In this document: positions 15,764 through 37,537 of the stretch, piece by piece
Numbering within the stretch: the first letter of the stretch is position 1
Layout of the letters: every line of letters begins with the position of its first letter
Source: a phage
Reading direction: 5' to 3' (one strand)
Assembly: GCA_028130375.1 (NCBI GenBank)
Contig: GCA_028130375.1_3658.1
Length of the DNA stretch: 64,000 nt
Notes under the pieces: model-generated
Told to the model about the DNA's origin: nothing
Database searches by the model: none
The model's input: the letters and a program-made list of their open reading frames with translations, nothing else
Position numbers and translations under genes: made by a program

Positions 15764-15953
15764 GCTTAAATCTGCATGGAACATCGCTGTGGGGGACGAG
15801 ATCCGTATCCCAGGTGGAAAGACCATTATGAAGATATCTCGTATCGAGTACGAAGGTGATCGTGTATTTCATATCTTTGCAGAGGATGGTCGAGAAATTT
15901 ATATACAGGCAGGCTCTCACATCTATATTCGTAAGAAAGGGGACGACAAATGA
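15756..15953 (+). CDS. hypothetical protein
   Basis: ATG 15756 behind AAGGAGGG; overlaps upstream stop. Confidence 0.45.
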   Translation: MFKLKSAWNIAVGDEIRIPGGKTIMKISRIEYEGDRVFHIFAEDGREIYIQAGSHIYIRKKGDDK

Positions 15954-16279
15954 CAGAGATCATCATTTCAACTGCAGGGTATGTGTTCCTGACAATCATT
16001 GCACTGACCATTCTGGTTGTGGTATATGGAATTGTTATTCTCCCTATTCTTGAGACAATTAGTTTGTGTCGGTGTTGGAGAAAGGCTTACGGTCCACAGC
16101 CGTGGAAGGACTGGCCCCACCTTGTGCACATAGCGTTCTCTTATGCTTATGATCACGCCAGCAGTGCATGCATAACCGGGTATCACGCCCACAACTGGAG
16201 CTGGGAAGGGTTGAGGAAATGGAATGTTACAAAGACCATACCTCTCCGCATGTACAAACCTAAAAACAAAGACAGCTGA
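15950..16279 (+). CDS. putative membrane protein
   Basis: 109 aa; N-terminal hydrophobic segment ..ISTAGYVFLTIIALTILVVVYGIVILPIL.. Confidence 0.5.
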   Translation: MTEIIISTAGYVFLTIIALTILVVVYGIVILPILETISLCRCWRKAYGPQPWKDWPHLVHIAFSYAYDHASSACITGYHAHNWSWEGLRKWNVTKTIPLRMYKPKNKDS

Positions 16280-16324
16280 TACTTGAAAATTCCTGGCATA
16301 TCAAGTGTAAGGAGGATTTCTAAA

Positions 16325-16537
16325 ATGGATTTCCTCCTTTTGATATTTCACCGGGTTAGATATTTTAAAATTCTTAGAAAATCAGAAAATGGATCGAAAA
16401 CTAAAATGGATTTTTCAGAGCAGGCGCGACAAACCGAATCACTCATCCTATCGTTTGCACCATATTCCAGTCCACCATTACAGATTTCCCGCACATGCTT
16501 ACATCCTTCTACTGGAACTTCCTCCACTTACCCTTGA
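16325..16537 (+). CDS. doubtful small ORF in a repeat-rich region
   Basis: ATG behind AAGGAGG but sequence is low-complexity and overlaps AAATGGATTT repeats. Confidence 0.2.
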   Translation: MDFLLLIFHRVRYFKILRKSENGSKTKMDFSEQARQTESLILSFAPYSSPPLQISRTCLHPSTGTSSTYP

Positions 16538-16591
16538 CCTTTTATGGTAATAATCTAACCACTATCTTGAGGTTGCGGTACAGCTTTCCGG

Positions 16592-16678
16592 GTACTCGAT
16601 CTGTTTTTCGTTTCAAAGATTGAATTTTCTTAAAATTTTTCTCGATAAATTTCTCAGTACTCGATCTGTTTTTCGTTT
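16592..16678. repeat. direct repeats (2 x 22 bp GTACTCGATCTGTTTTTCGTTT) in an AT-rich non-coding island
   Basis: Identical 22-mers at 16592-16613 and 16657-16678, with nearby CGAAATCGATTTTTCG palindrome and AAATGGATTT repeats. Confidence 0.6.
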
Positions 16679-16885
16679 TCTGAATCGGATTTTCTGGAAA
16701 TCGTTCCGGAGCTCGACCTGAAATTTTTGGGAACGAAATCGATTTTTCGTTTTCAGAAATGGATTTTTAAAATTTCTATATGGGAATATTTTATGGGATA
16801 CTGTTTTATAGGAAATTGTTACGGAGGGTAATTAGCACGCTAATTAAATTTATTAAATGCGAGGAGTTCTCATTTAGAATTTTGA

Positions 16886-17215
16886 ATGATAATCATTCTC
16901 GTTTGCAGAATAACGGGCACCCCCGGTGATTGTCTCCCGGCCCCTGTTGCCCCGGCTTGTTATTATAGTATCACACAGGACAAAGAAGGCAAGGATTTTT
17001 TGCATAAATTTTTAAATGATAATGATAACCGTTCTCATTTTATGCAGCGCCCATCCCCGGTGGTTATCTCCCCCGTCACCGGTGCCTGCCGTCCTTTCGA
17101 TAGGTATATTGTGCCACCTGGCGGGGCCGCTGTCAACACCTTTCAAAAAAAATTATAACCAGGTGCGCCCACTGCCAGGACCTGGCGGGGCCAGTCTGGC
17201 AGGGGAGAGTGAAAG
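16886..17215. repeat. GC-rich repeated element family (two ~80-bp imperfect copies plus three ACCTGGCGGGG boxes)
   Basis: TTkAATGATAAT..CCCCGGTG(A/G)TT(G/A)TCTCCC.. at 16886-16965 and 17016-17100; ACCTGGCGGGG at about 17116, 17180, 17399; the 17-mer CCCGGTGATTGTCTCCC recurs inverted at 26051-26067. Confidence 0.5.
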
Positions 17216-17451
17216 CTTGCAAACCTGGTAGGGCTATGCTATAGGGTAGGCAACAACTGGAGAGGAGGTACAAAAATGAAAGGTAATATGATCCCCTGGA
17301 AAATGTAGCGACTAATGACGCTGAGGCTATCGCCATGGTTGAAAAGGCTATGGCGGGAGCGTTGGAACATAAAGAAGAGTACGAAAAAATGGTGGTTAAC
17401 CTGGCGGGGGCGGCAGGTGGATTCTATCATAAAAATAATTTAAAATAGTCG

Positions 17452-17479
17452 TTGACAACAAGGTTAATCATGGTATTAT
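17452..17479 (+). promoter_or_regulatory. sigma70-like promoter (TTGACA-16-TATTAT)
   Basis: -35 at 17452-17457, -10 at 17474-17479; first of a long series of promoters preceding the small genes. Confidence 0.5.
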
Positions 17480-17529
17480 TACCCTACAAGGTGAACAACA
17501 CCGCACTAACCAGTAAAGAGGATAAATTT

Positions 17530-17727
17530 ATGAACGCATACGGGATCAAAGTACGTCGCAACACTCGCCAGGTGGTCACCAATCAAGTGATTTGCCGGGT
17601 GGATGTAACCATCAACAACGGGCAAGGCCTTTATAAATTTCGTCGCGGTCATAGCTATACCCTGCAACAGCTTAATCGTTGCGCCCTGACAAAAGGTCAG
17701 ATCAACCACTGGTTTAATAAAAAATAA
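17530..17727 (+). CDS. hypothetical small basic protein
   Basis: ATG 17530 behind AAAGAGGA and downstream of promoter; track start 17452 is the -35 box. Confidence 0.45.
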   Translation: MNAYGIKVRRNTRQVVTNQVICRVDVTINNGQGLYKFRRGHSYTLQQLNRCALTKGQINHWFNKK

Positions 17728-25629: not shown

Positions 25630-25764
25630 ATGAGAAAGATAATCATCACCTTGGGGATTGTGGCGGGATCGCTGGCGCTCTTTCCCCTTATGGTTAGGTA
25701 TGTGCTGATCAGTATTGTCCTGGTAGTCAGTGATCTATTGGAAACGGTTGGCACCTTGTTTTAA
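25630..25764 (+). CDS. small hydrophobic peptide (44 aa)
   Basis: ATG 2 nt after upstream stop; two hydrophobic segments. Confidence 0.3.
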   Translation: MRKIIITLGIVAGSLALFPLMVRYVLISIVLVVSDLLETVGTLF

Positions 25765-25779
25765 AGAGCGATAAAAAAA

Positions 25780-25971
25780 ATGAATGTCGAACAAGTTAGA
25801 AAGGTATTGGCGGTACTGCGTTATCATAATCATAGAAAGGTCATAGACGATCCTGATTATGTCGATTCAAACCTGGAAGAGGATACACTACAAGCCATAA
25901 GTAACATGCAAGAATTGCTAAAGCGCATGACAGAGAAAAACCGACCGGACTACATAGGCGAAAAAATATAA
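25780..25971 (+). CDS. hypothetical protein
   Basis: 63 aa ORF. Confidence 0.45.
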   Translation: MNVEQVRKVLAVLRYHNHRKVIDDPDYVDSNLEEDTLQAISNMQELLKRMTEKNRPDYIGEKI

Positions 25972-26031
25972 TATTTATAAACTACAAAACAGGGCTTGCA
26001 ATGGTCCTGTTTTTTGTTATACTTATTCCAC

Positions 26032-26074
26032 GGCAGGCACCTGGCGACGGGGGAGACAATCACCGGGCCTGCCT
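26032..26074. repeat. GC-rich hairpin element related to the 16.9-17.4 kb repeats
   Basis: GGCAGGC..GCCTGCC stem encloses CACCTGGCG and GGGAGACAATCACCGGG, the exact reverse complement of 16923-16939. Confidence 0.5.
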
Positions 26075-26181
26075 GTCATATAAGAACTATAAAAACCGTT
26101 GACATCTGCCATGGGGTGGGGTAACATTTATCTTGAAGGGGCAAAAGTGCCCACACAACAACCAGGAGAGAGGAAAACATT

Positions 26182-27217: not shown

Positions 27218-27637
27218 ATGAACATTAAATCTAATAATCCGGCATATAGCTTTGATAACGCTTTTTGTCACGGTCCGGCGGCGAAAGGATTCGAAATCGA
27301 TGGTAAACTAATTATTGTCAATGTTGACGGGGAAGAGGTTGCAGTATATCCGGTGGCAGACGTAAAAAGTCGTTTACAATGCCGCATGGATGTTACCGCC
27401 TACCAGCTTGATCCGGTCCGCATAGTTGCCCTGGTCCTGGAAGGAGAAATTAAAGCCATGCACCATAGCAACAGGTTTATTGGTGACGCTCAGGATAATA
27501 TGAAAGTATGCCGCCATAAAGTTAATGAAGTGCTTAAAGAGTACGGCTATAAAGATCTTATGATCAAACGTGAGGAAAAATTCCGCTACCGTAACGACCT
27601 GGCAAATCGGATTTTTGAAATATACGAATCATTATAA
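27218..27637 (+). CDS. hypothetical protein
   Basis: 139 aa; RBS TAAGAGG. Confidence 0.55.
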   Translation: MNIKSNNPAYSFDNAFCHGPAAKGFEIDGKLIIVNVDGEEVAVYPVADVKSRLQCRMDVTAYQLDPVRIVALVLEGEIKAMHHSNRFIGDAQDNMKVCRHKVNEVLKEYGYKDLMIKREEKFRYRNDLANRIFEIYESL

Positions 27638-27655
27638 TTTTTAACTGAATTATCA

Positions 27656-27679
27656 AGGGGCTTAGGCCCCTTTCTTTTT
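27656..27679 (+). terminator. intrinsic terminator (GGGGC-TTAG-GCCCC, TTTCTTTTT)
   Basis: Closes the plus-strand arm. Confidence 0.55.
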
Positions 27680-28298
27680 GTCTGCTCTTCCCCCCTACCA
27701 TAAACGGCCCTACCTGGCAAGTGGAATAATTGACGAGCCATCAATCCCACACACTGTACAAATATACATGTAAAATAGCTATTGCATAACCTTTCATTGT
27801 GTGGTAGCGGTGCTATTTTTTACCCGTTTTCCTTCCAAAATTGCACGTAATGCAGTTATTGCACAAAATTTAACCTGATGCACATCTTCAATATCTTGTC
27901 AACAACTAAAAATCTTTATAAGTCATACACTTACACAAACCAAAGAGCGTGTTCTACGTGAAAAATCGAGTATAACTATAGCCGCCAGATCTCAGAATTT
28001 ACGTACGCTCGCCATTCTATAGCCTGCTAAGCATTTATTCCAACCATAGAATAACGGAATAGTCAATACCTGCATAAAATAATTATTCGTGTAAACTGCA
28101 TAACATAAATCAGCTTAGGTGTCAACATTTTTCGTAAACAGTCTGAAATTATCACGGTGAGTTATCATAAACAGAGAAATCTTTAGTCGTCTAATGTTTA
28201 CTGTACGTTACTATACTAACTGAAATCATTAGATGACTAATAGAAAGATAAGAAATAATTAACAATACAATTATTTTATCTGTAACAATAAGGCAACT

Positions 28299-28531
28299 AT
28301 GCAAACGAATGGCATGGCGCGACGGAGTCGCGACATAATATAAAAGCAGTAACCATCACCCCCGTGATAGTTTGTCTGCAAACTATTAATCAGATCATAG
28401 TTGCCTTGTATTTAGTTAATCATGACATAACAAGCAAGGCAACTATAGATCTTCTAATAGTTGCCCTGCTTTTATATTATGTCATAGATTATTAACTTGC
28501 TAATAGTTATCATGCAAACGAATGGCATGGC
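28299..28531. repeat. 20-bp direct repeat pair (ATGCAAACGAATGGCATGGC) flanking GGCAACTAT palindromes
   Basis: Exact copies at 28299-28318 and 28512-28531; AAGGCAACTATAG..CTAATAGTTGCCCT inverted repeats between them. Confidence 0.6.
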
Positions 28532-28544
28532 TTATCATTTCCAT

Positions 28545-28620
28545 GTAAACTGTCAAGGTGTAAACTATCCAGGCGTAAACAGTCTATGCGGGAACAATCT
28601 ATACGTGAACAGTGAAACAT
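28545..28620. repeat. iteron-like array (5 x GTAAAC(A/T)(A/G)TC-like units, about 15-bp period)
   Basis: GTAAACTGTCA, GTAAACTATCC, GTAAACAGTCT, GGAACAATCT, GTGAACAGTG in tandem. Confidence 0.55.
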
Positions 28621-29159
28621 GAAATAATAACAGTCGTTATTGTTCCATATTGTGTCATAGTATGTCACCATTATGTCTAAAGTGTCTAAGGTGTCAGACA
28701 AGTTTTTCTCCTCTTTGTCAAGTGCTGCATGAAAAATTTACAATCTTGTATGGTAGCATTTTTGCGGCCATGTTTACATTCAGCGATGTATGTATAAGCC
28801 TTGTTGTGTGGGCGTTTAGACGTCTAGACGGTTGGAAGTCCACAGGTCAATATCTAATCTATCGGCTGCTAACTATATCCCACACAAATAGTAATAAATA
28901 TAATTGTTATATGCGTAAACAGTAACTCATGTTATCAATCCCTGTATGTATCGCCAGTGGTGCGCATAATGGGTATTATGTTAAATTGCCCGTAATGATA
29001 ACAGTTCTCACAATGATAGGTATTCTCATTCATCCACACAAAATAGGTTGCAAATGTTGTGCCACTGTGTGAACGGCCTGGCCTATTAATTTCTCTCACT
29101 GCCTCGATATTTGAGAATTGTTATAAGAATGAGAAGTATTCCCATTCCGTCCGCCTGGC

Positions 29160-29470
29160 AGCGCTCCTGTAGGTCCTGCAAGGACTCTAGCTGAAAGCTA
29201 GACCCTTCGGGCCTCCCTGTAGGTCAGGTCAAAATCGTGGCAGAACTGAGCCTGTTCAGATATTTCTGGCTGACTCTTCAGGTCTGTGTGGGAAAAGCCA
29301 ACCTCTCCGGCGGGGCAGGGGGAGGTCAATTAAAAAATTTACGTGGTGTATGAAGCGCTCTTCAGGTAAGGCAGGTATTATGGGATGAAACCCTCTTCAG
29401 GCAATGATATTTGTGGGTGTGATATTTGCTGGAAAGCCAGATATGACGGGACTCCCGGCGGGGCAGGGGT
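29160..29470. repeat. degenerate repeat cluster (CCGGCGGGGCAGGGG x2, CTCTTCAGG x3, CCTGTAGGTC x2)
   Basis: Exact 15-mers at 29306-29320 and 29454-29468 plus short recurring words; no convincing ORF. Confidence 0.5.
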
Positions 29471-30165
29471 AGTACAGACAGGGAAAATATGAGAATGTAG
29501 TTGGGGAAATTGATCAGACAGGTAGAGTATGGAATATGTTACAAGTATGTTAAATATGGAGGTTGAATATCTGTAGGATTTGTGTGTAAAATCAAAGACT
29601 TAAGGGGTGTTGTGGTATTTTCTATAAATAATTCAAGTTTAATAGGCAATATTTGTCTCTATCCGCTTTGTGTGGTAAACAGATTCAGATTAGATTGGTT
29701 TACAAGTGTATACATAATATACAAATTAAAGATACAAGAAACCCCCCTCCCCCCTTCGGCTACCATTCACCTTTTCCTCTGACTGGTACTTAAACACTTA
29801 TTCAGACTCTTCAGGTTATCACCCATATATCATATGGCAGTGACTGGTGTCCTCCGGCCCCTCTTTCGTCACCCGTCCGCTTCGCCATGCTAATGCCATA
29901 GCTAATGGTTCGGTTGTTCACCCTGTTCACTCAGGTGTATCTCTATACCCCTTCAAACCGAAGAGAACAGAAAACCCGAATTACTCGGTAAAAGAAAAGA
30001 GAAGAACTTAATTTTATCAGGATAGGCAAGAATGTCAAGGCATGACTGCTCACTAAACAAGCAAACAGTCATGTGTGGGAGGTAAGTGATTGTGGTGGTA
30101 GGAAATTTAGTTGAAAGATGTGTTATAGGTGCTTCCAGCACTTTAGCCGGGCAGCTAATTGTGTG

Positions 30166-30381
30166 TCAGTCCAGCGGTTCATCCTCTACTTCACTGAAAT
30201 CAATGTTCATGGTCTCTTCCCAACCATCGATCTCAGCACAAGAGTGGAGTTCTTTAGGGTTTACTCCCAAAGCCTCAGCAACAGAGTCTATATTTAACAC
30301 CTCTGGCAGGTATGATTCATCGAATTCAAGGTAAATCAGGCCACGAGTGTTGTCAGCTCCACCAAATATCTCTATCTTCAT
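30166..30381 (-). CDS. hypothetical protein
   Basis: 71 aa acidic ORF. Confidence 0.45.
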   Translation of the reverse strand: MKIEIFGGADNTRGLIYLEFDESYLPEVLNIDSVAEALGVNPKELHSCAEIDGWEETMNIDFSEVEDEPLD

Positions 30382-37253: not shown

Positions 37254-37537
37254 CGGTCTCCATCAGGTGGTTGTGGGACGTAAACACTGTTACGAATATC
37301 GTCAGCAGTGTAGTAATAAGTGGTTCCAACCCTGTCTCGGGCTGCAATGTACTCTGCTATACCAATAAGTGCCATTGATTTGGTGGCGTATCTTCCCAAC
37401 TCGTTAGCTCCCCAGTAGAATTTAGACCAGTAGGGAATAAGACCGAACAAATATACCTTTTGACGAACTTCCCAGTAAGTGCCTTTTCCGACAAGTTTAA
37501 ACTCTACTTCACTACTGTTAATCTTTTTCATTATCAA
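37250..37537 (-). CDS. hypothetical protein
   Basis: 95 aa ORF. Confidence 0.5.
   Translation of the reverse strand: MIMKKINSSEVEFKLVGKGTYWEVRQKVYLFGLIPYWSKFYWGANELGRYATKSMALIGIAEYIAARDRVGTTYYYTADDIRNSVYVPQPPDGDR

Follow-up and report, generated by a model that had tools for sequence, protein, structure and literature searches.

Sequence comparison places the repeats and GC-rich elements at 16–17 kb of this phage in a conserved non-coding control region of about 1 kb, found in rV5-like phages. The same comparisons identify the GC-rich elements as promoter-proximal leaders of three paralogous transcription units of the host σ70 type. We give a probability of roughly 40% to the reading in which transcription by host RNA polymerase, possibly gated by Fur, enters an AT-rich tract carrying iterons, making the locus an origin-like control region that would resemble oriE and oriF of phage T4.

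The window, meaning the whole 64,000-nt stretch analysed, belongs to a Vequintavirus (an rV5-like coliphage): it is 96.6% identical to O157 typing phage 14 and has 122 matching records. The original prediction spoke of a recurrent non-coding element family in an AT-biased phage. The family is real, and its conservation extends to over 100 related phage genomes as well as to other genera; the AT bias is present but no more than mild (window GC 0.43). Non-coding DNA extends for about 1 kb, from 16.28 to 17.26 kb, and is in parts better conserved than the flanking genes. In an alignment of ten genomes, nucleotide diversity is 0.02–0.075 across 16614–17144, except for 0.11 at 16794–16853; for comparison, flanking coding DNA has 0.14 and 16435–16613 has 0.19. 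Versions of this layout (cassettes, Fur-like boxes, and an AT-rich tract with iterons) are also present in Seunavirus, Mydovirus, and Phapecoctavirus. Neither the leader motif, the Fur boxes, nor the iterons of these phages are described anywhere in the searchable literature. The left edge of the region is marked by a hairpin:

16309–16339, plus strand: possible terminator hairpin AAGGAGGA...TCCTCCTT with a T-rich run after it, recognised by sequence and kept in 10 relatives

This hairpin may serve as terminator for the upstream plus-strand gene (15950–16279). The terminator scan was silent on it because its loop is 15 nt long.

Two imperfect GC-rich copies had been noticed near 17 kb, along with a 17-mer recurring near 26 kb, and both observations hold. 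The two copies lie about 134 nt apart, start to start, with 61–64% identity over about 110 nt and 67% over the leader; local GC reaches 0.66–0.70, against 0.43 for the window. The 17-mer CCCGGTGATTGTCTCCC occurs at 16922 (plus strand), at 17056 (plus strand, two mismatches), and as an exact reverse complement at 26051–26067, with 0.07 occurrences expected. The 26-kb copy does lie inside a hairpin, GGCAGG...CCTGCC, as claimed. An nhmmer profile of 37 copies finds exactly three matches in the window: copies A, B, and C. (Additional degenerate plus-strand copies, suspected by eye at 17100–17235, have no match with this profile.) The functional strand at 17 kb is the minus strand, opposite to the one first read. 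The components of the three cassettes are as follows:

16912–16958, minus strand: copy A leader, with motif GGGAGACAATCACCGGG at 16938–16922; GC 0.70, diversity 0.03–0.04
16962–16992, minus strand: predicted promoter P_A, with −10 TATAAT (16967–16962) and a weak −35 TTGCCT (16992–16987), 19-nt spacer
17046–17101, minus strand: copy B leader, with motif GGGAGATAACCACCGGG at 17072–17056
17108–17136, minus strand: predicted promoter P_B, TTGACA-17-CACAAT with an upstream TG, score 10/12
25986–26023, plus strand: terminator hairpin of a conserved 63-aa gene together with predicted promoter P_C, both recognised by sequence
26030–26076, plus strand: copy C leader, with motif GGGAGACAATCACCGGG at 26051–26067

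Each cassette has the same order: a σ70 promoter, 15–30 nt, and then the near-invariant motif GGGGGAGAYAAYCACCGG, which would occupy about +16 to +45 of the transcript. We infer the promoters of all three from their sequence elements. The −35 of P_C (TTGCAA, 25996–26001) lies in the terminator loop, 16 nt from its −10 (TATACT, 26018–26023, with upstream TG), and the P_C consensus TGTTATNCT is conserved across genera. Copies A and B read leftwards, opposing all neighbouring genes; copy C reads rightwards, ahead of an ordinary early gene, and downstream of it lies the next gene's own promoter, TTGACA-17-TAACAT (26099–26127). A predicted promoter is thus present for each copy, and the terminator scan found no intrinsic terminator after any of them.

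The spacing between promoter and motif is conserved well beyond the window. From −10 to GGAGAC the distance is 24 nt in all Vequintavirus copies; in the distant relatives L003 and L017 the position equivalent to P_A is taken by TTGACA-16-TATTAT; and GAP31 has three promoter-like sites on the motif strand, versus 0.8 expected. Some 70 distinct copies in phage contexts all have a −10 (A2/T6) that ends 22–36 nt upstream of GGAGAC, whereas at chance motif matches in bacterial genomes the −10 is absent or scattered in position. The motif heads predicted early transcripts of unrelated metagenomic phages as well. Because these unrelated phages use it, the motif probably is an early-leader signal of a general kind, recognised by a host factor. 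Nor is it specific to origins, since the same leader heads ordinary genes (copy C, and many metagenomic-phage copies).

A possible, if somewhat unlikely, alternative is that the leaders act as RNA and that the iteron tract is unrelated to replication. The motif would then be a 5′-leader signal for a host factor (RNA polymerase, ribosome, RNase, or Rho) that stabilizes the transcript, confers resistance to termination in a put/nut-like or STAB-SD-like manner, or yields short RNAs acting in trans; the A/B unit would make a non-coding or antisense RNA of about 0.7 kb, its level modulated by Fur. In those roughly 70 copies, which come from at least five unrelated phage groups without detectable shared proteins, the promoter stands at a fixed distance from the motif, and the transcribed strand is always the one carrying it; such constancy among unrelated phages points to a host partner and a role at the transcript level. 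GGAG is universal within the motif, and the Pseudomonas-phage variant GGAGGUAAUC, on reading the sequences, matches the extended Shine-Dalgarno sequence GGAGGUGAUC at 9 of 10 positions, although no start codon follows the GGAG. For B, C, GAP31-type A, and "type ii" metagenomic copies one can draw short GC stems with the motif in or beside the loop, and one candidate base pair appears by eye as A-U, G·U, or G-C across genera.

These stems do not, however, combine into a consensus fold. RNAalifold on 12 copy-C-type sequences gave −3.3 kcal/mol and no stems; the drawn two-stem structure pairs 73.3% of cells versus 70.7% in shuffles, with a single pair altered on both sides; and single-sequence folding z-scores are mostly unremarkable. 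Searches of Rfam with the window gave no match at the gathering threshold and only noise at E up to 10, with nothing relevant in seven related loci, and the tRNA/tmRNA scan found none. With no Rfam relative, no consensus fold, and pairing near the shuffled level, the small structured RNA family that had been suggested, in the usual sense of the term, is not supported. The absence of intrinsic terminators after A, B, and C also counts against a role as RNA, which leaves unexplained the strong constraint on the AT-rich tract and the three conserved iterons downstream of A.

Conservation in primary sequence rather than in pairing would also suit double-stranded DNA operators. Under such an arrangement, which we consider distinctly unlikely, the motif and boxes would lie just downstream of a few early promoters and a phage or host regulator would switch these off or on, with the repeats CCGGACCTG/ACCTGG as additional half-sites and the iterons binding the same or another regulator. 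In CR9 the direct repeats are CCGGACCTG, and in KP13-26 they change together to CCGAACCTG. CCWGG sites (n = 7) are more numerous in 17000–17500 than in any other 500-nt bin of the window, and four of the five occurrences of ACCTGGCG on that strand in 64 kb fall at these loci. Yet the orientation of the motif and its distance to the promoter are constant, and a symmetric operator would require neither; G-run length ranges from 4 to 6; no recognisable regulator is common to the unrelated phages with the motif; and the motif stands at only three of dozens of early promoters in this phage.

A second element of the control region lies between each of the leftward leaders and the sequence beyond it. 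The 19-bp palindromic Fur-box consensus of γ-proteobacteria is GATAATGATAATCATTATC, and the locus contains three boxes that resemble it:

16855–16875, no strand assigned: second Fur-like box, degenerate; minus-strand sequence AAATGAGAACTCCTCGCATTT, read from sequence
16882–16900, no strand assigned: Fur-box-like palindrome A, TTGAATGATAATCATTCTC, 15/19 to the consensus, about +57 to +75 from the copy-A start
17018–17036, no strand assigned: Fur-box-like palindrome B, GATAATGATAACCGTTCTC, 16/19 to the consensus, about +65 to +83 from the copy-B start

The boxes at 17018 (three mismatches) and 16882 (four) are the best and second-best in 64 kb, where 0.25 is expected at four mismatches or fewer. 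The degenerate box has more than five mismatches to the consensus and is the counterpart of an intact second box in GAP31 and BIS47. Box A is likewise conserved in GAP31, BIS47, anhysbys, L003, and Aeromonas phage 2L372X, L017 has a 17/19 match to the consensus at the place of box B, and anhysbys has a 16/19 match at the corresponding place. Equivalent boxes adjoin the motif in CR9, P7_Pc, phiWec186, anhysbys, GAP31, BIS47, SSBI34, L003, L017, and Aeromonas phage 2L372X; anhysbys has a run of Fur-like boxes at 29-nt spacing. We infer that the boxes serve as Fur operators. Their position is not that of classical Fur repression, over the −35/−10 or the start: they lie at +57 to +83 of P_A and P_B. 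The only promoter-like sequence overlapping box A is a weak plus-strand TTGAAT-18-CAGAAT (8/12), which is not conserved in BIS47 or 2L372X.

The predicted promoters P_B and P_A are both directed into the third element, an AT-rich tract (traversed from 16860 to 16585). The 22-mer GTACTCGATCTGTTTTTCGTTT that had been noted there is indeed exact at both positions, 16592–16613 and 16657–16678, with 0 occurrences expected even at three mismatches. These repeats turn out to be the cores of larger 57-nt units, of which a third, degenerate example is present; the unit spacings are 65 and 74 nt:

16585–16860, no strand assigned: AT-rich tract with iterons; GC 0.32, diversity 0.03–0.11
16585–16641, no strand assigned: iteron unit 1, with the exact 22-mer core at 16592–16613
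16650–16706, no strand assigned: iteron unit 2, with the exact 22-mer core at 16657–16678
16724–16780, no strand assigned: iteron unit 3, a degenerate copy with 61% identity to unit 1

The tract ranks second among the most AT-rich 300-nt stretches of the window. Three related units per locus (GGTWCTCGATC...TTTTTCG), spaced 65–77 nt apart, occur in Seunavirus GAP31 (76 and 67 nt, sharing the CTCGATC...TTTTTCG core) and in phage SSBI34 (77 and 65 nt). Protein-binding sites, among the functions first proposed for the region, would be a good description of this part of it: the putative Fur operators together with the iterons.

Several observations weigh against an origin. In Certrevirus, iterons are missing from the loci of the copy-C type, where a Fur box and an AT-rich stretch are nonetheless found; GC skew does not switch at 16–17.5 kb; and no DnaA box with one mismatch or fewer was found. 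The purine bias of the predicted transcripts is ordinary and lends the origin reading no support. A rival candidate exists in the larger and more AT-rich non-coding region at 27.6–30.3 kb, which shares no iteron-like or motif-like sequences with the 17-kb locus. In rV5 itself, skew changes lie elsewhere, only at points where transcription switches direction, and the origin was not located (PMC3606486); T4 oriA and oriC likewise lack a shift in strand composition (PMC3016281).

Together, these elements suggest a model for an origin-like control region. Early in infection, P_B and P_A would be fired by host RNA polymerase. Operator-bound Fur-Fe2+ may then set the fate of the transcript, which would either end past the leader or continue into the iteron tract. 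Read-through would open or prime the AT-rich tract, with some protein binding the iterons. The locus would thereby be a transcription-activated, origin-like element, comparable to T4 oriE (early promoter and iterons) and oriF/oriG (promoter and A+T-rich unwinding element). A bolder extension, which we hold to be rather unlikely, is that strictly lytic rV5-like phages and their relatives in several genera sense host iron: Fur operators in a backwards non-coding unit would gate transcription of the iteron tract, timing origin firing or another early decision (or phage DNA, once amplified, would titrate Fur away from the host iron regulon and so relieve its repression), and unrelated phages would share, in the 18-nt leader motif, a new signal for binding a host factor.

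The right-hand part of the region contains the repeated box ACCTGGCGGGG. Its three exact copies, at 17116, 17180, and 17399, are as originally listed, with 0.42 expected even at one mismatch. The first (17116–17126) is the spacer of P_B; the others lie among the following features:

17166–17207, no strand assigned: GC-rich hairpin with the second ACCTGGCGGGG box (17180–17190), in an indel-rich segment
17223–17233, plus strand: degenerate fourth box ACCTGGTAGGG, in a promoter-like TTGCAA-17-TATAGG upstream of a small plus-strand ORF
17276–17448, plus strand: small ORF (57 aa in relatives), with the third ACCTGGCGGGG box (17399–17409) inside

Relatives have 19 additional nt after 17201. The small ORF is frameshifted by a 1-nt deletion in the window and is deleted entirely in phiWec196, a deletion of which the degenerate box at 17223–17233 is one end. 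The ACCTGGCGGGG boxes do not make up a functional class of their own: they fall in the P_B spacer, in a hairpin, and in a small dispensable ORF, and also form the end-points of deletions.

Such deletions bring to mind the promoter-early stem-loop (PeSL) cassettes of T4-type phages, reportedly described by Arbiol et al. in 2010. The rV5-like elements could be promoter/terminator "regulatory cassettes" of this kind, kept similar by gene conversion, with recombination (the shuffling and deletion of small early genes) as their main effect and no role other than to start and stop transcription. In copy C a promoter is built into a terminator hairpin; the metagenomic phages have one such cassette ahead of nearly every small gene; the 3′ half of copy A alternates among strains between GGGGGTGCCCG and the copy-C-like GGGCCTGCCCG; the B and C leaders are 79% identical despite 9 kb of separation and opposite orientation; and ACCTGG boxes form the end-points of deletions in JLBYU08, ECP26, and phiWec196. 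We nevertheless judge this account quite improbable. The 18-nt core is identical across phage subfamilies whose flanks are unalignable, so recent gene conversion cannot account for it, and both the Fur boxes and the constrained iteron tract are left unexplained. The fusion of a terminator stem-loop to an early σ70 promoter is seen in copy C and the metagenomic copies, whereas A and B lack the terminator part.

Two further interpretations are hardly credible. The miniature mobile element of the original prediction, MITE- or REP-like, would fit multiple copies in both orientations that are GC-rich against their surroundings. Terminal inverted repeats and target duplications are nevertheless missing from the copy flanks, all three copies sit at identical sites in every aligned relative (10/10), and no copy was found in hosts: none of 5,426 E. 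coli genomes has a match, and across 596 Gb of bacterial genomes the motif is no commoner than chance (27 matches in unrelated taxa, none enterobacterial). Equally far-fetched is that the region encodes protein, as annotated in relatives (rV5 gp193 and Gotham F10B_0202, corresponding to window ORF 16886–17158, with a 90-aa product). This ORF is open in eight of ten genomes and appears as a hypothetical protein in several records, but the frame is broken in the other two, by a +5-nt shift with a stop in JLBYU08 and by a −1-nt shift in rV5_ev147; its variable sites (8/8/12 by codon position) show no codon periodicity; its start codon falls inside a Fur box; and gene calls are inconsistent between genomes. 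The absence of an Rfam match, of a covariation-supported fold, of a host copy, and of presence/absence polymorphism, together with the frameshifted ORF, argues that the region is not a classical structured RNA, MITE, or gene.

Other candidates were considered and rejected. Codon periodicity is absent from 16326–16538 on either strand. The minus-strand ORFs 17239–17430 and 17133–17336 have no similarity to the small opposite-strand genes of other genera, and the "X element" of those genera is not present in the window. A short peptide through the motif (CTG/ATG...GETxTGPA) fails because the G-run is 4 to 6 long and A-type copies have no start codon. Likenesses to the CRISPR I-E/I-F repeat, the ops element, a copy-A G-quadruplex, and a σ70 pause-type −10-like GACAAT, noticed by eye, do not extend to the whole family.

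The rV5-like phages are among the coliphages of broadest host range and are used in biocontrol and therapy. The 17-kb locus is a concrete candidate for their replication origin and early regulation. If true, the conserved Fur operators would be the first sign of strictly lytic phages tying their programme to host iron status. Both in the gut and during infection iron is in short supply, and such coupling could therefore affect phage performance in vivo. The motif, common to unrelated phages and at chance level in bacterial genomes, is a candidate new handle on a host factor. In addition, a number of the "hypothetical proteins" that public genomes list here probably are not genes.

Known systems resemble parts of this arrangement. 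PhiTE pseudo-ToxI, a non-coding RNA locus of a Certrevirus between phiTE_202 and 203, consists of 36-nt tandem ToxI-like repeats (PMC3475682). Its phage belongs to the same subfamily, and it too is non-coding and repetitive, but it is not the same locus: the position differs and the repeats have no similarity. The PeSL cassettes share with the rV5-like ones a layout: compact units of terminator and early promoter between small early genes, in multiple mutually similar copies tied to deletions and shuffling. Unlike PeSL, the rV5-like cassettes have the additional 18-nt leader motif conserved across unrelated phage groups, and two of the three window copies are not ahead of a gene.

Lambdoid phages have cis-acting leader RNAs, among them HK022 putL and putR and the nut boxB of lambda and P22, and 5′ STAB-SD elements are known as stabilisers. 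Here again paralogous elements lie just downstream of divergent early promoters (A and B leftward, C rightward); the rV5-like leaders have a GACAA pentanucleotide like that of the P22 boxB loop and, like STAB-SD, an SD-like GGAG with no start codon. They have no conserved two-stem fold and no boxA, however, and no N-like protein is known, so this is an analogy only.

Like γ-proteobacterial Fur operators, the phage boxes match at 15–17 of 19 positions, are often tandem, and are conserved where hosts share the Fur consensus. They differ in lying about 60–80 nt downstream of strong promoters, not over the −35/−10, and these candidate sites are in strictly lytic phages, with no iron-related gene under their control. 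Phage-borne Fur boxes known so far are prophage cases, for example upstream of sitABCD in lambdoid phages (PMC6969025).

The closest parallels to the proposed control region are the T4 origins, although the rV5-like locus, a putative origin, has no strand-bias switch. T4 origins have no counterpart to the tandem pair of cassettes, with their conserved G-rich leader and Fur-like operators, and the repeats here are cores of about 22 bp spaced 65–77 nt apart rather than 12-mers. T4 oriF and oriG consist of a promoter and an A+T-rich unwinding element, with priming by an R-loop (PMC3016281); the rV5-like locus similarly has predicted host-type promoters reading into an A+T-rich stretch. T4 oriE has evenly spaced iterons and requires an early promoter (PMC3016281), and the rV5-like locus, itself among early genes, likewise combines an evenly spaced cluster of direct repeats with a predicted early promoter.

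The repeats, GC-rich units and boxes singled out by the original prediction are all present above chance: the exact 22-mer at 16592 and 16657, which lies within three 57-nt units (the iterons); two GC-rich units about 134 nt apart; three exact copies of the box ACCTGGCGGGG; and a 17-mer at 16922 with an exact reverse complement at 26051-26067. Searched with a family profile of 37 members, the window yields exactly three copies (A and B at 17 kb, C at 26 kb), and the equivalent 43 kb of rV5 also yields three. A mobile element, for which such recurrence could be cited, seems very improbable.

The region matches 122 phage records, headed by E. coli O157 typing phage 14 (96.6%); the others are rV5-like phages of the genus Vequintavirus, and the plus strand of the window is the minus strand of the rV5 reference. 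The locus sits in a long early/middle block of small genes, with the DNA polymerase and primase-helicase genes 8-11 kb upstream. (About 16 GenBank records, MG0656xx, carry the name 'Campylobacter phage' and the host Campylobacter jejuni; at these loci they share 89-98% identity with rV5-like phages of E. coli, and that host assignment seems questionable.)

Alignment of ten Vequintavirus genomes across 16200-17560 characterizes this locus as non-coding and constrained.

Nucleotide diversity across the locus
Upstream gene end: 0.14
16435-16613: 0.19
16614-17144, iterons, palindromes and copies A and B: 0.02-0.075, with a single bin of 0.11 at 16794-16853

The case for coding sequence is an ORF (16886-17158, rV5 gp193) annotated over copies A and B in several records. 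This ORF is frameshifted by +5 nt in JLBYU08 and by -1 nt in rV5_ev147, and shows no codon periodicity in the Vequintavirus alignment. Periodicity is likewise absent from both strands of 16326-16538, where relatives have stops, and gene calls across this kilobase vary between genomes. A coding explanation is scarcely credible. A reading frame through the leader motif was considered separately; relatives have anywhere between 4 and 6 G in the motif's G-run (comparison sequences L030 at 1763, L019 at 1529 and L037 at ~960), which argues against it.

Unlike the constrained part, 17100-17450 is rich in indels. ACCTGG-type boxes are the end-points of deletions in JLBYU08, ECP26 and phiWec196, and the window lacks 19 nt found in relatives after 17201. 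Over 17129-17406, the deletions in three relatives (L039, L040 and L042) differ from one another, and their ends lie at ACCTGG(C/T)(G/A)GGG boxes, which suggests that these boxes are recombination points. The segment also contains a small ORF.

17276-17448, plus strand: small ORF, 57 aa in relatives, with a strong ribosome-binding site

It is frameshifted in the window by a 1-nt deletion near 17295 and missing entirely from phiWec196. We doubt that the ACCTGGCGGGG boxes constitute a separate functional class: the first forms the spacer in the predicted copy B promoter, the second lies in a hairpin of the indel-rich segment, and the third falls within the dispensable small ORF. The boxes coincide with deletion end-points, and CCWGG sites are clustered at the locus.

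With each copy oriented on the strand bearing GGGAGAYAAYCACCGGG (minus at 17 kb, plus at 26 kb), a predicted sigma70 promoter lies at a fixed distance 5' of every copy.

P_B, copy B, minus strand: TTGACA-17-CACAAT, TG upstream
P_C, copy C, plus strand: TTGCAA-16-TATACT with TG; the -35 lies in the terminator loop of the preceding gene
P_A, copy A, minus strand: perfect TATAAT; more distant relatives have TTGACA-16-TATTAT there

In all ~70 distinct phage-context copies, a -10 element with A2/T6 ends 22-36 nt upstream of GGAGAC, in three classes: TATAAT (22-24 nt), TG-n-TATNCT (26-30 nt) and CACAAT (35-36 nt). Chance motif matches in bacterial genomes lack such placement. The elements are therefore best read as promoter-proximal leaders. 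Promoter consensus implies that the 17-kb leaders would be transcribed against the direction of the neighbouring genes.

The leader motif is conserved far outside Vequintavirus. Cassettes of the copy C type occur in Certrevirus (CR9, P7_Pc), SSBI34, Stephanstirmvirinae (KP13-26) and Pseudomonas phage PsgM04F, adjoining a 63-aa gene or one gene downstream of it.

25780-25971: 63-aa gene directly upstream of copy C, phrog_9599

This gene is conserved in SSBI34, PsgM04F, CR9 and P7_Pc; the cassette follows it directly except in CR9 and P7_Pc, where one gene intervenes. The opposite-strand locus in other genera runs: small gene (different between genera), promoter, X element, promoter, copy-A-type leader, Fur boxes, iterons. 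The X element (ACGCCACCCCACGGCGUAAAGGCGGGGCUAAC...GGUGGAUCGCCGGUAG) is a conserved GC-rich stretch of ~90 nt with its own promoter, found between the small gene and the cassette in Seunavirus, Mydovirus, SSBI34 and Phapecoctavirus.

X element in comparison sequences
L034, 1385-1460, minus strand
L033 (GAP31), ~1375-1455
L036, ~1345-1430
L032, ~1680-1765

It has one internal hairpin with compensatory changes (by eye), part of its other strand reads as an intrinsic terminator, it has no Rfam match, and it is not present in the window.

When metagenomes were scanned, the motif turned up in unrelated phage contigs of 42-47 kb (for example, Ga0255090_1000022), each with six or more copies, and a contig of 215 kb has four. 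The arrangement does not vary: a terminator hairpin and TATAAT are followed after 22-23 nt by the motif, then by a T-run and the promoter of the next gene (sequences L011, L014, L072-L073, L075-L076, L079-L080, L082-L083, L089, L093, L097, L103, L108 and L123). PHROG contains no relative of the small proteins of the L014 contig. Bacterial genomes contain the motif at chance level only, and hosts not at all.

The predicted structured RNA fared less well, and the evidence is against one of the classical kind: the leaders have no Rfam relative and ordinary single-sequence stability, 12 copy-C-type sequences yield no consensus fold, and a two-stem structure, once drawn, is satisfied as well by shuffled sequences as by the real ones. 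Several subtypes allow a short GC stem, its 3' strand formed by the CACCGG motif end with the G-rich half in the loop, and one candidate pair appears across genera as A-U, G.U and G-C; this support is weak, since pairing registers differ among subtypes. Conservation lies in the primary sequence, an indication of a protein partner or of single-strand pairing. That the leaders are purely RNA signals for a host factor is rather unlikely; that they are double-stranded operators, more so; and that they are PeSL-like cassettes with no additional function is improbable.

The Pseudomonas-phage motif GGAGGUAAUC (L019 1529-1546) matches the extended Shine-Dalgarno sequence GGAGGUGAUC at 9/10 positions, and the main motif GGAGACAAUC (window 26052-26063) at 7/10. 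No start codon follows, which suggests a possible ribosome-binding leader without translation.

An AT-rich palindrome lies 3' of each 17-kb leader, ~57-83 nt downstream of the inferred starts. Scored against the consensus for Fur, the host iron regulator, those at 17018 (16/19) and 16882 (15/19) are the top two sites in 64 kb; 0.25 sites with at most four mismatches are expected in the window. (Further four-mismatch sites lie at 25632-25650 and 37517-37535, one of them ~400 nt upstream of copy C.) Box A, the palindrome after copy A, forms with the 3' end of that copy the most broadly conserved stretch of the locus, 80-92% identical in Seunavirus GAP31, Mydovirus BIS47, SSBI34, Phapecoctavirus anhysbys and Aeromonas phage 2L372X. 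Most relatives sharing it have a tandem pair of Fur-like boxes; phiWec186 has three, and anhysbys a run at 29-nt spacing. The literature searched reports no Fur sites in lytic phages of the rV5-like group.

Transcription past the boxes would enter a 300-nt stretch that ranks second in the window for AT content and holds the three repeat units, spaced by 65 and 74 nt. GAP31 has three units (76 and 67 nt; related core GGTWCTCGATC...TTTTTCG), as does SSBI34 (77 and 65 nt). Unit number and spacing are kept across genera and most of the sequence is not, a pattern to be expected if a sequence-specific DNA-binding protein has its sites here. Copies of another repeat, (A)AAATGGATTT, lie in the non-coding region at 16317-16332, 16398-16413 and 16751-16766; a related pair, AAATCCATTTT, is found inverted in GAP31 (L033 773-800 and 906-933).

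A large non-coding region at 27600-30300, between convergent gene blocks, is the 'non-coding' box of the rV5 map. The window's AT maximum over 300 nt falls here (28011-28310, GC 0.30), along with exact 20-mers at 28299 and 28512 and CCGGCGGGGCAGGGGGAG repeats at 29307 and 29455; the region has no motif or iteron in common with the 17-kb locus.

Together, the comparisons establish at sequence level a conserved non-coding unit with predicted motif-strand promoters, and Fur-like palindromes and iterons in conserved order. We propose that host RNA polymerase would initiate at P_B and P_A, that read-through might be gated by Fur, and that transcription entering the AT-rich iteron tract would activate it in the manner of an origin. 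We give this reading a probability of roughly 0.4, because several checks gave it no help. The locus has no skew switch, DnaA box or special purine bias. Against the origin-like reading, moreover, the Fur boxes do not overlie a promoter, the leader motif is not specific to origins, and the bigger non-coding region at 27.6-30.3 kb is a competing candidate.

Taken singly, none of the features is of a new kind: promoter-leader cassettes, Fur operators and iteron tracts all have precedents. New are their combination, its conservation across several lytic-phage genera, and the 18-nt leader motif common to unrelated phages; the literature searched describes none of these. The replication origin of rV5 was never located (PMC3606486). 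Among systems worked out in detail, the T4 origins come closest. At oriF and oriG a promoter is combined with an A+T-rich unwinding element, and the transcript forms an R-loop that primes synthesis; oriE requires an early promoter and has iterons at even spacing (PMC3016281).
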